In this document: piece after piece, positions 3,285 through 64,000 of the stretch
Position numbering within the stretch: the stretch's first letter is position 1
How the letters are laid out: every line of letters starts with the position of its first letter
DNA from: Clostridia bacterium
GTDB taxonomy: Bacteria > Bacillota > Clostridia > Oscillospirales > UBA644
Direction of reading: 5' to 3'
Assembly: GCA_017440085.1 (NCBI GenBank)
Contig: JAFSHW010000038.1
Coordinates: forward strand, 8,245 to 72,244
Length of the DNA stretch: 64,000 nt
Notes under the pieces: generated by a model
Told to the model about the DNA's origin: nothing
The model's input: the letters and a program-made list of their open reading frames with translations, nothing else
Database searches by the model: none
Position numbers and translations under genes: made by a program

Positions 3285-4376
3285 ATGAAAAAACAAGCGA
3301 AAAACAAACGTGATTCAGTTTCTGTATTGGGCGGTTTGATAATTTTGGGGGCAGTTTTAGGCTGCGCGCTCATAGCAGAATACGGAACCAAAGAAGAAAT
3401 TCAAATACCGGAAATTTATTACACTCCACCGTCTCAGGCAACTATTCCAAATCTTTACGACCCTGAAAACGGCTCGGATAGTGACCCATCAGTTGATACA
3501 CTTCAGCCAGCTGACCCAAATCTCACAGATAGAAACGAAGATGGGGTAATTGACGAAGCGGATCTTTTACCAAGAGAAAAATACGATTTACCCTATCCTC
3601 AAACAGAACGCCCTGAGGACGTTAAGGCTATGATAGTTCAGCACTCCGCAAGGTCAGGCTACGAATACTTCGATAATTCAGTCTTTTTAGGCGACAGCGT
3701 AACCTTGGGTCTGAAAAATTACGCCACGAAAAAACGCCAGACGGACAGTTATTTCTTAGGTGATGCAAAGTTTATTGCCGTGGGAAGCTACAGCGTGGCT
3801 GACACATTAGTACCCCTTGAATCACCAAATTCAATTCACTCCCTTTATAATGGAGAAAGAATGCAACCGCAGGATATAATTGCTCGTATGGGCGTGAAAA
3901 AGGTATTTATTTGCCTTGGGCTTAACGACGTGGGGATTTACACTCAAAAGGAATATCTGACAAACTATTCAATTCTCATAAACAGAATCAGAAAAGAAGT
4001 TGAAGACGTACAGATTGCGATTCTTTCCGTAACGCCTCTCACTTTGGAAGGCGAAAGGAAAACTCTTTATAACGAAAGAATTGACAGATACAACAACGTT
4101 CTTGCAGCTTTTGCAAAAGAATACGGCTGTTATTTTATTGACGTCAGCCAAGTGTTGAAAAACGAAGAAGGATACCTTGCGGACGAGCTTTCAAGTGACA
4201 ATTACTGCCACCTTGAACCCACGGCTTACGATGCTTGGATTGACTATATGCTTACCCACTGCATTCCAACCCCCGAAGAGGAAGCGGCAATTGCCGACGG
4301 AAATCAGGGACCCCTCCACATTGACAAAGGAATTCCCGAAGTTGAAGGTTGGGAAGGCTCAGCGGGCGAGCCATAA
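3285..4376 (+). CDS. membrane-anchored SGNH/GDSL-family hydrolase
   Basis: N-terminal TM anchor. Block I FLGDSVT, block III GLNDVG, block V DNYCHL. Confidence 0.7.
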   Translation: MKKQAKNKRDSVSVLGGLIILGAVLGCALIAEYGTKEEIQIPEIYYTPPSQATIPNLYDPENGSDSDPSVDTLQPADPNLTDRNEDGVIDEADLLPREKYDLPYPQTERPEDVKAMIVQHSARSGYEYFDNSVFLGDSVTLGLKNYATKKRQTDSYFLGDAKFIAVGSYSVADTLVPLESPNSIHSLYNGERMQPQDIIARMGVKKVFICLGLNDVGIYTQKEYLTNYSILINRIRKEVEDVQIAILSVTPLTLEGERKTLYNERIDRYNNVLAAFAKEYGCYFIDVSQVLKNEEGYLADELSSDNYCHLEPTAYDAWIDYMLTHCIPTPEEEAAIADGNQGPLHIDKGIPEVEGWEGSAGEP

Positions 4377-7449: not shown

Positions 7450-10400
7450 TTAAGCCTTTTTCTTTTTGAAAACTGCAATACTCAAGAATCCAAAGATAAA
7501 TCCAAGTGCAATCATTACGAATCCAATGCTGTCTGTGGTTCCGGGGTTCACAGGGTCATCGGGATCTTCGGGATCTTCAGGGTCAACGGGAGGATCAACG
7601 GGAACGTCGGGGATGATAGGATCATCAGGATCTTCTGGGTCTTCAGGATCATCGGGAACGTAAGGTGTGTAATTGTAAATATTCTCGAATTCCGCAACTG
7701 CCATATCAACCTGAGTGCCGTCCAATGTGACGATAGTGTTGATTCTGTTACCGCCGCCAAGGTAAACGTAAACAGTGATAGTATGTTCAACTCTGCTGTA
7801 TTCAACGTTTTCTCTGCCGCCGTTTACTTCGTACATCTTATAAATATACGTATGACCAATGTCAGACTCGCTGAACATCAAGCTGAAAGCTGCCAAACCG
7901 TCTTTGCCGGAAGTAGCTCTGTAAGTTCTGCCTTGAGTTACGTTGTAAAGCACGAATTCAAAGCCTTCGGGTCCGATTACTTCGGTGCCAACGTTCTTAA
8001 CCGTCTTATGAGCGAGAACGTTCATAACTACGGGAGAAGGAGCAGGTGTGTAGTAATTTACAAACTTAATTCCGTTTGCAGGAGCGTGATTGCTTCCCTT
8101 TGTAATTACGGGAACGCCCGCTACAAGCTGACCTGTTCCGTCGTCGGAAACATCAATGGAAACGTAATAAACACTTCTATCGTAAGTAACGCGAGCCATA
8201 GGAACGGAAGTATCTTCCATAACCACGAAGTAATAAGTCTTAGGTTCTGTGAGGGAAATATTTCCAAAGCTGAATGAACCGTTTGCGCTGTTATAAGCTG
8301 TCTTGGGAGCGATTTCGTTATTGATAGCGAAGTTACTGTCTGCTGTATAAAGCATAAATCTGAATTCGCTATTGCCGAGGATTCTGCCCCAAAGCTCTTT
8401 TACACCGCCGATAACGGTTGAGGTTGCCGTAGGCTGATACTTATTAGTAAAGTTGAGGCCTTCAACGCTCTGACCTGTGGGGCCACCGGCGCCACCGAAG
8501 TCAGTCTTTCCATTGGAATCTTCAACCCAAACGAATGCATCGATATAATCAGTATCACCACGAACGACAACTTTAATCTTGTATTCGTTGCTATCGTACA
8601 CGATGCCGTTAATTTTTTGACCTGCATACTTTTCTTTAAGAACGAAGTAGTAAGTCTGGCCTACGTCTTCCGCTGTGCAAACAAGAGTCATTCCGTATTT
8701 ACCGCCAACTTCGTTTGCAGTTGTGATAAACGCACCACCGGTTATTTCGTATTTATCGTTTGCGGGGTAAAGTTCGAACGTGAAATCTCCGGGGTTGAAC
8801 GCTTTATCAAAGAATTTCTGACCTTCGAAGTAAATGACGTATGTGCCATTGAAAGTATTGGTGAAGTCAAGACCTGAAATTGTTACGTTATCAGGGTCAA
8901 TTACAGTATAACCACTGTTGAGTGCCGCACCGTCAGAACCGAATTTCTGAACGAAAAGCTTAGCGGATGCTGTGCCGTCTTCATTATCAATAATTTCAAC
9001 GGATACGCGGTATTCATTAGTATCAGTAACTATCAAATTGTTTTGAACTGCAGCTTCTTTAATTACGTAGTAATCAATATTTCCAATGTCATCAAGGGTA
9101 ATATTGGAATAATCAAGGGAGAAGCTGTATGCACCGTTGATATTCTGAGCAGTAACAGGAGTTACGTTTTCAGTAGCATAATTGGAATCTGTCTTGTAAA
9201 GCTCAAATGTAAAGGAATTATCAGAGAAAGGAATGTTGTAAATTTTATTACCTGCGAGAGTGATTGAGATATTTCCGCTTACGGAATATTCGTTTTTAAA
9301 GTCGATACCGTTGAGCGCAATATTTTCATTTACTTTTGAAGTAAATTCGCCATCGCCAATCTTTACGGAAGCCTTTACTTTACCGTCTCCGTTATCTTCA
9401 ACCTTAACGGTAACGTGGTATTTAGTTTCATCATACGAAACGCCGCCTAAAGTTCCTGCTTCTTCTTCGATTACGTAATAATATGTATTGCCAACGTGAG
9501 TTTCATCGTAAGCAAGCTCAAATTTAAACTCGCCAAGGAACTGGTCGTTAACTGTGTAAGTTTCAACCTTGCTGTATCCGTTTTCTACTGCATTTGCAAA
9601 TGTGGAATCAGTTTCATAAAGTTTGAAGCTGAATTTACCTGCTTCCAAAACTTTGCCGATAAGAGTCTTCGTACCTGAAAGTGTTACGTTTACGTTGCCC
9701 TTAACAGTATAGGTATTTGTGAAGTCGAGATTTTCAAGCTCTGCACCTGAAACTTCGGAAGCGGTTGCTTCAATTCCACCAAATCCGTTATCTTCCACAA
9801 CAACTGTAAGAGTATAAATCTTTGAGTCGTATGTGATACCGTCTATTGCCTGCGAAGCGTTTACTTCTTTAATGGTGTATTCATAAGTTCCGATGTCATC
9901 TTTGCCGTAGTTGAAGGTGTAGCTCCAAGTGCCGTTTGCAAGAATATCTACGGTACTGAGTTTATCGTTGCCTTTGTAAATTTCTACCTTGAAGTCGCCG
10001 TCTTCGAAAGTCTTATTAAAGGACTTTTCGCCCCCAACAGTTACGGAATCAGCCGCATTTTCAGAAACAGCATAGGTATTTGTGAAGTTGAGTTTTTCAA
10101 TCTCTGCACCTGAAACTTCGGAAGCGGTTGCTGTGATACCACCCTTGCCGTCATCTTTAACTTCAACCTGAATTTTGTATTCCTTACTATCGTAAGTGAT
10201 ACCGTCTATTGTCTGACCTGCATTTTCTTCCTTAACTACATAGTAGTAAGTTTTATTTAAATCGTCTTTGGTGTAATTAAGAGCGAATGAATATTTCTTA
10301 TCAGCATCGTTCTTCACCGTTGCGGGAGTAGAACCATCTTTAATCGTGTAAGAATCATCATCAACGCTATAAAGCTGGAAAGTAAATTTATTTGCGCCAA

Positions 10401-62087: not shown

Positions 62088-62163
62088 ACGTAAACAAACC
62101 TGCCTTTATATTTATAGTTAATTTTTCGTATTTGCGTTGCGAAAAATACTCTCGGTTGTATTC

Positions 62164-62192
62164 AGTATAACACACGCTTCTCCGTTTGTCAA
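62164..62192 (-). promoter_or_regulatory. sigma-A type promoter of the ACP-like/rnc unit
   Basis: On the minus strand: TTGACA (62192-62187), 17 nt spacer, TATACT (62169-62164) with TG extension. Confidence 0.55.
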
Positions 62193-62254
62193 CAGCTTTT
62201 CCTTCCCCCAGCCACCACCTGCATTTGCAGGGCGGTCTCGGCGGTTGGGGGGAG

Positions 62255-62330
62255 TTATTTCGTCAACTCCTGATACATTTTCATAAGTTCCGCCACGCAC
62301 TCGGATTCGGAATTGAGTTTGCGCTAAAAG
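62255..62330 (-). pseudogene. relic 3' end of an MmeI-like DNA methyltransferase gene (last ~22 codons plus stop)
   Basis: The minus-strand translation F*RKLNSESECVAELMKMYQELTK* parallels the live gene end FWGKLNSEAECVSELIKMYQELTK* at 63242-63313. By hand alignment, 52/66 nt are identical. Confidence 0.8.
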
Positions 62331-62345
62331 CAATAACAGAAAAAA

Positions 62346-63218
62346 TTATTCTTTAAAAAAAGATTCTCCACATAACCCTAAATACTCTATTGGATCCATT
62401 GAATATTTCCAAATATTATTGCAAATAGAATACAAATGACATATGAAAGCTTTTATGTACTCAGGATAATCTATTTGTGAATTATAATTTGAATTCAACA
62501 GTAATGTTTCATTATTAGATATAACATATATTGGATAAGGAAAAACTTTTTTTTCACTTAAATCCCCATTTTCTTTTTCAAACTTCTGTTTAAAATCAAC
62601 AGATGCCTTTGAAAAATCAAGGCAGTATGCAAACACTCCATCCTTCAAGCTCAATATAACACTATGCCAATACTTTGGGTTTATATCTCCATATATTTCA
62701 TTTAAAGAAAGATCTTTAAATTGAAAATCCAACTTATTACATACTAAAAATGATCCTATAGTATTGTCTGTCTCATTCTTACTTACCTGTTCAGGAGCCC
62801 CAACATTTCGCTCTTCCAAAATTGTTTTTTTATTCTCAGCCATTTTTCGAAGGGCCTTTATAAACTCTTTTCTACTCATAGTTGATTTTATTTCACCTAT
62901 CATTTGCACAGATTCTGCAGGGAACATTTGAGCAGTATTTGAAGAAATCAGAGTAGGGATGTTTGCATCATAAACAATTACATCACATTGCGTTGTATGC
63001 TTATTATTTTGCGTTATAATGAAACCATCAGCTATACCAAATTTTTTAGGCAAAACAGTACGTAACAATTCTTTAAAAGCTCTTTCTCGATATTGTCCAT
63101 ACTCACCCATATGAAAGATTTTGCTATCATCTCTATAGATATCGCCTGCATCGTCATAGCACTGTAAAAAACTATTAATTTTCTCATCAAGTAATGTTTT
63201 ATAAATATCAGAAGCCAT
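62346..63218 (-). CDS. PD-(D/E)xK-type nuclease-fold protein (DUF6602-like, from memory)
   Basis: The motif order E(45)...D79 (QCDVIVYD)...E109-I-K111 (IGEIKS) fits the PD-(D/E)xK core. The gene is visibly AT-rich. It starts 23 nt after the methyltransferase stop. Confidence 0.55.
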   Translation of the reverse strand: MASDIYKTLLDEKINSFLQCYDDAGDIYRDDSKIFHMGEYGQYRERAFKELLRTVLPKKFGIADGFIITQNNKHTTQCDVIVYDANIPTLISSNTAQMFPAESVQMIGEIKSTMSRKEFIKALRKMAENKKTILEERNVGAPEQVSKNETDNTIGSFLVCNKLDFQFKDLSLNEIYGDINPKYWHSVILSLKDGVFAYCLDFSKASVDFKQKFEKENGDLSEKKVFPYPIYVISNNETLLLNSNYNSQIDYPEYIKAFICHLYSICNNIWKYSMDPIEYLGLCGESFFKE

Positions 63219-63241
63219 AAATTCACCTTTTCCTTTATTTT

Positions 63242-64000
63242 TTATTTAGTTAATTCCTGATACATCTTAATAAGTTCCGAAACACATTCCGCCTCCGAAT
63301 TAAGTTTACCCCAAAAGCCGTAAGCTTCCATAACTGCCTTATCGTTAAGCTGATGTGCCTTGCGAAGTTCGGGAGGCATGGTCAGTTCATCGTAAAGGTC
63401 AGCAAGTGAGCTGTCGGGATATAAAGCCCTTGCGTCAAGAATAGCCTGCGCAGTCCTTTCAATCTTTAGTTTCTGTGCTTCCGTAGGCGTAGGCCATGGG
63501 AAATTATTGTAAACAATATTAATTGAATACTGATAACTTGGTCCATAATATCCACAAGTGGCACGCATCCACGCCATGTGAACATTTGACGTTAACATTC
63601 CAAATTCATAGAGGGTAGCATTTTCAACAATACGAAGTTTATTTCCAACAACAATTTCAGGTGTCATAAAATCTATCGGTATGTATTTTCTATTACCTGA
63701 TGAAACTTCAGGTAGAGCAATATAGTTTGTCTCGGGTTGCTGATTTTCATCAAACAACATTGGAGTTTCAGCCTTTTTCCTAGTTGCTGCTTTAGAACTG
63801 TTCAGACGAAAATTTCTAACGGCTTCAATTCTTTCCATTATATATTTATTCTTACGTATATTTGAAATATTGGCACCCACTAACCACAAACAATATCTTG
63901 GCTTTCTATCTATAAAATCTTTTCCCATCATAAATTTACGAAACAAATTTTTAGTTTCAGGATATCGACTTATAAAATCCAAATATTCAGCTTCGGTATA
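63242..64000 (-). CDS. MmeI-family (type IIL-like) DNA methyltransferase / RM enzyme, C-terminal ~250 aa only (5' part outside window)
   Basis: The frame is open to base 64000. RYCLWL, NRKYIPIDF, HMAWMRATCG, IVYNNFPWP and SLADLYDELTMPPELRKAHQLNDKAVMEAY match the TRD/C-terminal blocks of MmeI-like enzymes as I recall them. Confidence 0.6.
   Translation of the reverse strand, partial: YTEAEYLDFISRYPETKNLFRKFMMGKDFIDRKPRYCLWLVGANISNIRKNKYIMERIEAVRNFRLNSSKAATRKKAETPMLFDENQQPETNYIALPEVSSGNRKYIPIDFMTPEIVVGNKLRIVENATLYEFGMLTSNVHMAWMRATCGYYGPSYQYSINIVYNNFPWPTPTEAQKLKIERTAQAILDARALYPDSSLADLYDELTMPPELRKAHQLNDKAVMEAYGFWGKLNSEAECVSELIKMYQELTK

Follow-up and report, generated by a model that had tools for sequence, protein, structure and literature searches.

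We describe a probably displaced gene end in a 64-kb stretch of Clostridia DNA (64,000 nucleotides [nt], the whole of which we call the window). The gene concerned belongs to the MmeI family of restriction-modification enzymes; its 3' part lies at the far end of the window, where it is followed by a gene for a DUF6602 protein and then by a second, degenerate copy of the MmeI gene's own last codons, which we call the relic. Our preferred explanation, to which we give a probability of about three in four, is that the relic is the original 3' end of an allele like the one on contig L032, displaced by a cassette of ~987 nt that carried a replacement tail and a putative nuclease gene. Positions are window coordinates, and features lie on the minus strand unless stated otherwise. 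The window is base for base the same as contig L001, which extends beyond it; positions on that contig convert as window position = 68152 - L001 position.

Two copies of one gene end

The live gene end (63242 to 63307) and the relic (62255 to 62320), both on the minus strand, match at 52 of 66 nt. The peptides that they spell, KLNSEAECVSELIKMYQELTK in the live gene and KLNSESECVAELMKMYQELTK in the relic, each followed by a stop codon, are identical at 18 of 21 residues. As a whole, the relic spans 62255 to 62336: positions 62255 to 62315 hold what we read as the displaced original tail, with its own TAA stop codon, and positions 62316 to 62336 form a degenerate upstream part with an in-frame TAG just ahead of the relic codons. 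Without gaps, the two copies match at 63 of 84 nt, and outside this repeat the similarity falls to background (5 to 10 matches in 30 for each flanking window). Their local alignment score is 44, compared with a mean of 11.1 (standard deviation, 1.5) and a maximum of 19 in 2,000 shuffles (z = 22), and the relic is matched by a hidden Markov model (HMM) at an E value of 1.3e-7. The window has exactly two copies of the tail; there is no third within the 64 kb. These results bear out the initial annotation, which had reported, from a hand alignment, a second copy of the last ~22 codons of the MmeI-like gene with its own stop codon. The same arrangement is present on all of the independently assembled contigs that cover the stretch, which come from different samples (L001 to L015); therefore, the duplication is not an assembly artifact. 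An apparently split DUF6602 gene on L014 is due to a run of scaffold Ns, not to mutation.

A protein search with the full enzyme recovered alleles (P0004, P0005, P0007, P0008, P0010, and P0011) that are 87 to 96% identical to it in residues 1 to 520, as opposed to 37 to 45% in residues 521 to 800, the recognition-domain segment. Two of them, P0004 (contig L032) and P0005 (L033), terminate in the exact relic peptide. Both have a single tail, which in L033 runs directly into a perfect hairpin; we take this to be the undisturbed state. Along with P0007, they occupy another chromosomal locus in related metagenome-assembled genomes, in the order deaminase, Mur-ligase-like gene, MmeI gene, and variable genes, with a melibiase gene further along where the contig reaches. 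At the nucleotide level, the relic matches the live tail of L032 at 58 of 61 nt past the motif AAACT (95%; 96.9% by alignment). It is also 93% identical to the tail plus hairpin of L033 and 95% identical to the relic plus hairpin of L034 (allele P0007), compared with only ~77 to 79% for the live tail of its own gene. The first 1.5 kb of the live gene is 96.5% identical to L032, versus 82 to 84% for the alleles in L118 and L121, which share the plsX–acpP locus of the window. Thus, a single L032-like allele is the source of both the relic and the 5' part of the live gene, and the earlier proposal that an ancestral methyltransferase gene ended at the relic agrees with the ends of P0004 and P0005. 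The exact relic tail, ATGAAAATGTATCAGGAGYTGACGAAATA, had no match in a metagenome scan, the collection evidently lacking these samples.

These comparisons also bear on two explanations that derive the relic differently. If the gene had duplicated its own 3' end in place and the extra copy had decayed, one would expect direct copies lying close together, as is the case here (~1 kb apart), and the downstream copy does have an in-frame stop codon just upstream. Yet the live tail and the relic differ at 13 codons, 10 of them synonymously; therefore, the two tails diverged as functional alleles, and the relic did not arise through decay of a local copy of the live tail. In addition, the copies differ in GC content (32.8% live versus 42.6% relic), and the relic is 95 to 97% identical to the live tails of other alleles, far above its match to its own gene, which makes in-place duplication hardly conceivable. 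The live tail, which we call type B, occurs otherwise only in allele P0008 (L118) among 120 listed homologs. Alternatively, the relic could be what is left of a second, tandem MmeI-like gene that has been deleted almost entirely, since second MmeI-like C-terminal fragments can occur near MmeI genes (as in L102). This is very improbable given that the live 5' part and the relic come from the same L032-like allele and, joined at AAACT, rebuild its end exactly.

Anatomy and proposed route of the insertion

Compared with L032, the window allele changes abruptly in identity and composition at several points. Identity is 90 to 100% up to L001 positions 3624 to 3637 and ~50% across the recognition domain that follows (L001 3637 to 4626). 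This AT-rich patch, which corresponds to a swapped recognition domain, covers 63526 to 64000 and runs past the window to ~64515; its GC content is 33.7% overall and 22.7% at third codon positions, and its left breakpoint is common to every allele pair compared. Next comes a resident-type stretch of the C-terminal domain (63303 to 63525; L001 4627 to 4849) that ends in ...GGGGTAAACT, has a GC content of 45.3%, and matches L032 at 203 of 224 nt (90.6%). The last 20 codons of the live gene with the stop codon (63242 to 63302; 32.8% GC) then match L032 at 46 of 61 nt (75%), a significant drop from the stretch just upstream (Fisher test, P = 0.004). The relic is the mirror image: its agreement with L032 past AAACT (58 of 61 nt) contrasts with 14 of 22 (64%) in the 22 nt before that motif (P = 0.0008), and the part before AAACT is closer to the live gene of the window itself (16 of 21).

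The inserted cassette (62316 to 63302; ~987 nt; 29.9% GC) consists of the type B tail, a spacer, the DUF6602 gene as its sole complete open reading frame (ORF), and a right end of 28 nt, the last part of which is a degenerate target repeat (TTATTGCTTTTAGCGCAAACT). Both of its flanks are L032-like and, when joined, they rebuild the 3' end of L032 without a base lost or gained. The insertion point lies 61 nt before the stop codon, between ...GGTAAACT and CAATTCC.... Along L001, GC content is 46.9% in the 5' part of the gene, 33.7% in the recognition domain, 45.3% in the C-terminal-domain stretch, 32.8% in the live tail, 29.9% in the DUF6602 gene, 42.6% in the relic, and 44 to 47% in the flanking genes. 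From the switches in identity and GC content, we conclude that the window allele differs from L032 by two AT-rich patches, the second of which is a precise insertion of ~987 nt. The initial annotation had postulated one foreign segment bearing an allelic 3' end and the nuclease gene, and had suggested comparing GC content across the junctions. A block of that content does lie between L032-like flanks of 45.3% and 42.6% GC, and the compositional switches coincide with the breakpoints. The single segment, in turn, has to be replaced by two patches, separated by the resident-like stretch of 223 nt.

The following sequence of events would account for this structure. Before the insertion, the gene at the plsX–acpP site would have ended in ...GGTAAACTCAATTCC... 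and run straight into the hairpin. An AT-rich cassette made up of a 61-nt replacement tail, a 23-nt spacer, the DUF6602 gene, and a short degenerate target repeat would have recombined into this L032-like gene exactly 61 nt before its stop codon. The incoming tail would have preserved the reading frame, as 18 of 21 residues agree, and the old tail would have moved downstream, where it would no longer be translated. The result would be a reciprocal hybrid in which the live copy is resident and then cassette-type, and the relic is cassette-type and then resident. One possible route is a single, Campbell-type crossover in which a circular cassette recombined with the gene through ~80 nt of gene-end homology. 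Another is a double crossover with a donor that already had the order tail, gene, relic; here the C-terminal domain would be the left arm, and the relic plus hairpin would be the right arm. Because the donor was not found, these two routes are inseparable. At the recurrent border between methyltransferase and recognition domain, the latter would have been swapped either in an event of its own or along with the cassette, as a discontinuous tract of one import.

Several points weigh against this scenario. No donor was found for the cassette, and the best DUF6602 homologs, only 44 to 46% identical, are not beside MmeI genes. A cassette-free strain of the same species was not found either: all contigs with an identical acyl carrier protein or DUF6602 protein share the arrangement. 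For this reason, the insertion is deduced from alleles at another locus in other genomes; relatives that end at the relic and lack the nuclease gene, for which the initial annotation had suggested looking, do exist as the sister alleles L032 and L033, and not as conspecific strains. The direction of change is not strictly provable, as recombination between the live tail and the relic could delete the cassette and yield the state that we consider undisturbed. The C-terminal-domain stretch could itself be donor DNA, being 90.6% identical to L032 and not 96.5% like the 5' part. Finally, the left edge of the relic falls within 4 nt at three loci (the window, L034, and L118), which random illegitimate joining does not predict.

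Such joining is the core of another scenario, in which one donor fragment with the recognition domain, C-terminal domain, tail, and DUF6602 gene was anchored by homology in the methyltransferase region and its far end was joined illegitimately inside the resident tail. Homology-facilitated illegitimate recombination is established in transformable bacteria, according to work cited in PMC5361080, and the sharp, common left breakpoint at the border of methyltransferase and recognition domain is what this scenario would produce. L034 is a better match for it than the window: compared with its sister allele L033, L034 is 98.6% identical over the 5' 1.5 kb and different throughout the 3' 1.3 kb. 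In the window, however, a 223-nt host-like segment (90.6% identical to L032) interrupts the two AT-rich patches, and the 21-nt target copy at the right end of the cassette, with 16 of 21 matches to the live gene, suggests homology at both ends. Therefore, we regard one-sided joining as unlikely here and favor the insertion of a cassette carrying its own tail.

Recurrence, fate of the relic, and cargo

The layout of live tail, accessory ORF, and relic tail is found in three further lineages. Allele P0007 (L034 to L037) has a 215-aa ORF followed by a 61-nt relic and a perfect hairpin (z = 18). Allele P0008 (L118 to L120 and L019), at the plsX–acpP locus, has a 153-aa ORF followed by a relic that has lost its stop codon and then by the hairpin (z = 13). 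In a distant relative, L044 (67% N-terminal identity), the ORF is 153 aa long and the relic, which contains an in-frame TAG, measures 125 nt (z = 57); no hairpin was noted behind this relic. Of the four close alleles whose downstream sequence is long enough, three carry a relic and one is intact; among metagenomic loci at 63 to 71% identity, the count is 1 of 56 assessable, namely, L044. L127 and L128 have none. This recurrence with different accessory genes in L034, L118, and L044 is in line with the earlier suggestion that the methyltransferase gene serves as a homology arm. No Pfam or NCBIfam family matched the accessory ORFs of L034, L118, L019, and L126, and only weak matches were obtained for the ORF of L034 (in PADLOC) and that of L044 (to SseB). 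Other MmeI alleles are followed by yet other genes, such as an ORF of at least 263 aa in L126 and one of 440 aa in L128. Since different alleles carry different downstream genes, the position behind MmeI genes is a hot spot for variable cargo.

Two neighboring observations concern the ends of sister alleles. In L032, an ORF (8772 to 8866) begins 15 nt past the MmeI stop codon (MNDLPKRKQIRLKDYDYSQKGYYFVTVCTHN); we take its first 31 residues to resemble the N terminus of IS200/RAYT-type Y1 transposases, and these 31 aa have no Pfam match. Allele P0011 (L121 6001 to 8880; plsX locus; 91% N-terminal identity; 959 aa) has a divergent C-terminal domain and an end 31 residues longer without a recognizable conserved tail, and its contig stops 67 nt further on.

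The shared left edge of the relic in the window, L034, and L118 may reflect either common ancestry of a relic module spread by recombination or a preferred insertion point. Under the latter, the gene end around GGTAAACT and the following C, together with the hairpin, would be an att-like site. A recombinase or nuclease of the host, or one acting in trans, would insert and excise promoterless cassettes there, in the manner of integrons or of elements that exploit Xer or target tRNA ends. Such a site would explain why the relics begin at AAACT/C (window), AACT/C (L034), and /TCAATTC (L118; the slash marks the edge) beside three unrelated accessory genes, why the insertion is nucleotide-precise relative to L032, and why longer identical runs elsewhere in the tails (8 and 11 nt) were not used as the crossover point. 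It is less easily reconciled with the lack of any recombinase, integrase, or transposase found in or beside the cassettes, with cassette right ends that have no common motif beyond AACT, and with the L044 junction at -125 instead of -61. Moreover, the window and L118 share the plsX–acpP locus, so theirs may be one ancestral junction. All told, we consider site-specific docking quite unlikely. A dif/Xer site at the junction was rejected; only the XerD-like half weakly matches the Bacillus dif consensus. A more general idea, which we put forward only tentatively, is that the last ~60 nt of MmeI-family genes plus the hairpin might act as a reusable docking site at which single-gene defense cassettes with their own gene ends are loaded behind Type IIL genes, exchanged, and possibly excised as small circles, all without a dedicated integrase.

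If a cassette displaced the gene end, as we favor, the relic most likely has no function and is a recombination scar, though one still usable as a homology arm. It consists of 20 codons and a stop, without a start codon or an associated gene. Its likely contribution is passive: beyond the cargo, it offers other alleles ~100 nt of homologous sequence. As the direct repeats are 75% identical, spontaneous loss of the cargo should be rare. The hairpin follows the original stop codon (62202 to 62254; G/C rich; -30.2 kcal/mol; z = -3.9). In L033, its perfect 29-bp form (CCAACCGCCGAGACCGCCCTGCA...TGCAGGGCGGTCTCGGCGGTTGG; -63.7 kcal/mol), also present in L034, is about twice as stable. The left arm and loop of the window hairpin agree with L033 and L034 over 35 of 35 nt; the right arm differs, is weaker, and resembles that of L118. 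The initial annotation had interpreted this structure as the original terminator. A hairpin is indeed located there, past the original stop, and it has no U-tract, so the designation as a terminator is not substantiated. A dispersed, REP-like (repetitive extragenic palindromic) hairpin was rejected, as the window has a single copy and all occurrences in the fetched loci lie behind MmeI tails.

Selection for a function of the relic, as a small ORF, a regulatory RNA, or part of an acpP terminator or insulator, could in principle explain why relic and hairpin are 93 to 97% identical among the window, L032, L033, and L034, and ~83% (counted by eye) between the window and L118 inside a 158-nt stretch that is 76% identical overall; a hairpin and a promoter also come after the relic. 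But no start codon precedes the 22 codons, the L118 copy has lost its stop codon and changed two residues, and the window hairpin has half the stability of the perfect form. An Rfam scan of relic and hairpin returned nothing credible, the one hit being a chance SCARNA7 match far below threshold. Since the coding 5' part also has windows of 98 to 99% identity, the similarity of the relic to other alleles indicates recent exchange and not constraint. We therefore judge a selected function to be improbable.

Two further features adjoin these hairpins. Directly past the hairpin, L033 (8841 to 8925) and L034 (~9570 to 9640) have a 32-nt tandem repeat in 2.7 copies (consensus GTACGGGTTTTGGGGTTAAGGTACAAAGTAA), absent from the window. 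At the end of L036 (9446 to 9639), the relic and the perfect hairpin are followed by the reverse complement of the window's own relic, most likely because the assembler read through the palindrome and fused sequences of two co-resident organisms.

The cargo gene (62346 to 63218) encodes a 290-aa protein that matches Pfam DUF6602 (1.2e-24) and, in PADLOC, PD_DExK (1.8e-30) and NucC (4.7e-18). Residues E45, D79, E109, and K111 are invariant; for D79, E109, and K111, this holds in 14 homologs. An AlphaFold model (pLDDT, 84.7; pTM, 0.85) matched NucC over its full length in Foldseek (6uxf, 6p7p, and 6q1h; E values of 7e-13 to 4e-12; TM scores of 0.59 to 0.71; ~289 aligned columns), at a sequence identity of only 13 to 16%. 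Neither a CD-NTase nor a Cas10 gene was among those called in the loci. The PD-(D/E)xK gene of the initial annotation thus keeps its predicted fold and motif and can be narrowed to a full-length NucC-like DUF6602 protein. DUF6602 is also the domain of "Damona," a single-gene antiphage system reported from Vibrio integron cassettes (bioRxiv 10.1101/2024.07.02.601686), and from its motifs and modeled fold the cargo would be a candidate Damona-type nuclease defense gene. Two DUF6602 homologs (L122 6001 to 6915 and L123 6001 to 6894; 44 to 46% identical) lie directly downstream of rlmD/TrmA-like U5-methyltransferase genes on unrelated contigs, and this position may be another preferred site for the gene. 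The end of the rlmD-like gene is not duplicated beside them; therefore, the tail duplication is a property of the MmeI locus and not of the DUF6602 gene.

The plsX–acpP island and known systems

The part of the MmeI gene inside the window (63242 to 64000) comprises recognition-domain and C-terminal-domain sequence (Pfam MmeI_TRD, 3e-54; MmeI_C, 1.9e-24). The gene continues past the window end to a start at the equivalent of 66028 and is complete on L001 (2124 to 4910). Its 928-aa product has six Pfam domains (MmeI_N, MmeI_hel, MmeI_Mtase, Eco57I, MmeI_TRD, and MmeI_C), an NPPF motif at residue 501, and a full-length PADLOC match to Type IIG restriction endonuclease-methyltransferases (1,138 bits). 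From these matches, it is predicted to be a Type IIL/IIG enzyme with an N-terminal nuclease, a helical spacer, a gamma-class N6-adenine methyltransferase, a recognition domain, and a C-terminal domain. The order on L001 is plsX, the MmeI gene, the DUF6602 gene (23 nt on), relic, hairpin, promoter, acpP, rnc, and further genes. Of the species recovered, the three closest (L016 to L018; uncultured Oscillospiraceae/Eubacteriales; rnc, 84 to 89% aa identity) have plsX and acpP only 17 to 27 nt apart, so the 3.95-kb restriction-modification block is an island. Homology to the empty site of L016 breaks off at L001 2087 and resumes at L001 6038; the island thus covers L001 2088 to 6037, and its right edge falls at window position 62115. 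The insertion that the initial annotation had proposed for the nuclease gene is supported, and to it must be added that of the whole island between plsX and acpP. The island may be ancestral at this site and lost in L016 to L018, or it may have been transferred between species. It is present at the same site in the more distant L118, L121, and L126, and the closest allele of its gene (96.5%) is located elsewhere in other genomes.

The right end of the island carries, ahead of acpP, a predicted outward-facing sigma-70-type promoter (62164 to 62192; TTGACA, a 17-nt spacer with TG, and TATACT; 11 of 12 consensus positions), which is kept in L118 and L019. With acpP cut off from plsX by the island, this promoter, judging from its position, probably restores transcription of acpP-rnc. 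Between this promoter and acpP, L118 (9675 to 9989) and L019 (99 to 437) have an ORF of 104 to 112 aa without a family match; in the window, ~45 nt of unrelated sequence takes its place. All 3 to 7 single-nucleotide polymorphisms (SNPs) among conspecific contigs fall within L001 3093 to 3407, and none falls in the recognition domain, cassette, or relic. One of these contig variants (L002/L012 position 1737, equal to L001 3093, outside the window) is a nonsense SNP that splits the restriction-modification gene of one strain into 323 + 601 aa.

The locus shows at nucleotide resolution how a restriction-modification gene can gain a putative defense gene behind it without being inactivated, as the incoming DNA brings a substitute end. 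Co-resident gut Clostridia have the scar, with different cargo, at two chromosomal loci, and a distant relative has it once. This recurrence suggests that Type IIL genes are modular at three points, namely, the recognition domain, the tail, and the downstream cargo; therefore, tail relics could serve as a search handle for accessory or defense genes and as a means to date exchange. The practical value lies mainly in comparative genomics of defense islands. Should the docking idea be true, the restriction-modification gene would serve as a platform that carries accessory immunity genes across different loci and species. We found no published account of such a scar for the MmeI family in a literature search of incomplete coverage.

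Partial parallels exist in several known systems, the closest being C-terminal displacement, insertion with long target duplication, and integrative elements that restore gene 3' ends. NucC is an effector of CBASS (cyclic oligonucleotide-based antiphage signaling systems) and of type III CRISPR systems. The cargo resembles NucC and Damona in its DUF6602 domain, conserved E/D/ExK residues, and predicted full-length NucC-like fold; unlike in NucC systems, sequence identity is low and no cyclase or Cas10 partner was called nearby. Elements of tRNA and tmRNA islands target gene 3' ends and restore the gene with their own copy. Here, too, the insert supplies a replacement 3' end and the original end forms the far-side direct repeat, but no integrase was found, the repeats are diverged alleles and not an identical core, and the cargo is a single gene.

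Insertion with long target duplication has been described at restriction-modification loci (Nobusato 2000; Furuta 2010, PMC2853133). The cassette is similar in being AT-rich, in its location at such a locus, in the lack of a mobility gene (Pfam and PADLOC scans of the cassette gave no integrase or transposase domain), and in its 82-nt direct repeats, longer than the 30 bp of that class and single-copy in the uninserted allele. In the published cases (PMC2853133), by contrast, the insert is itself a restriction-modification system and the repeats are nearly identical (e.g., 44 of 46). Here, the insert lies inside a restriction-modification gene and holds only a tail fragment and the DUF6602 accessory gene, with no complete restriction and modification homologs, and the repeats are allelic versions, 75 to 79% identical, in a reciprocal hybrid. 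The sharp, recurrent breakpoint between methyltransferase and recognition domain is shared with recognition-domain substitution and "domain movement" in Type IIG and Type I/III enzymes (Furuta 2010, 2011, 2014; PMC2853133). Domain swaps alone leave no relic, as shown by L032 versus L033; in the window, the relic comes from the additional insertion of tail plus cargo.

C-terminal displacement is known from Rhs, contact-dependent inhibition (CDI), and type VI secretion system (T6SS) effector-immunity loci (Jackson 2009; Kirchberger 2017, PMC5361080). In those loci, the host gene is a toxin, the cargo is an immunity gene, and the displaced piece is a toxin tip with its immunity gene. In our case, the host gene is a restriction-modification enzyme, the cargo is a stand-alone nuclease gene, and the displaced piece is the last 20 codons of a conserved tail, left as one relic and not as an array. 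What the two share is a set of alleles that are conserved on the 5' side and vary on the 3' side, a new 3' end that arrives with linked cargo, an old end that persists downstream without being expressed, and conserved sequence that acts as the anchor.

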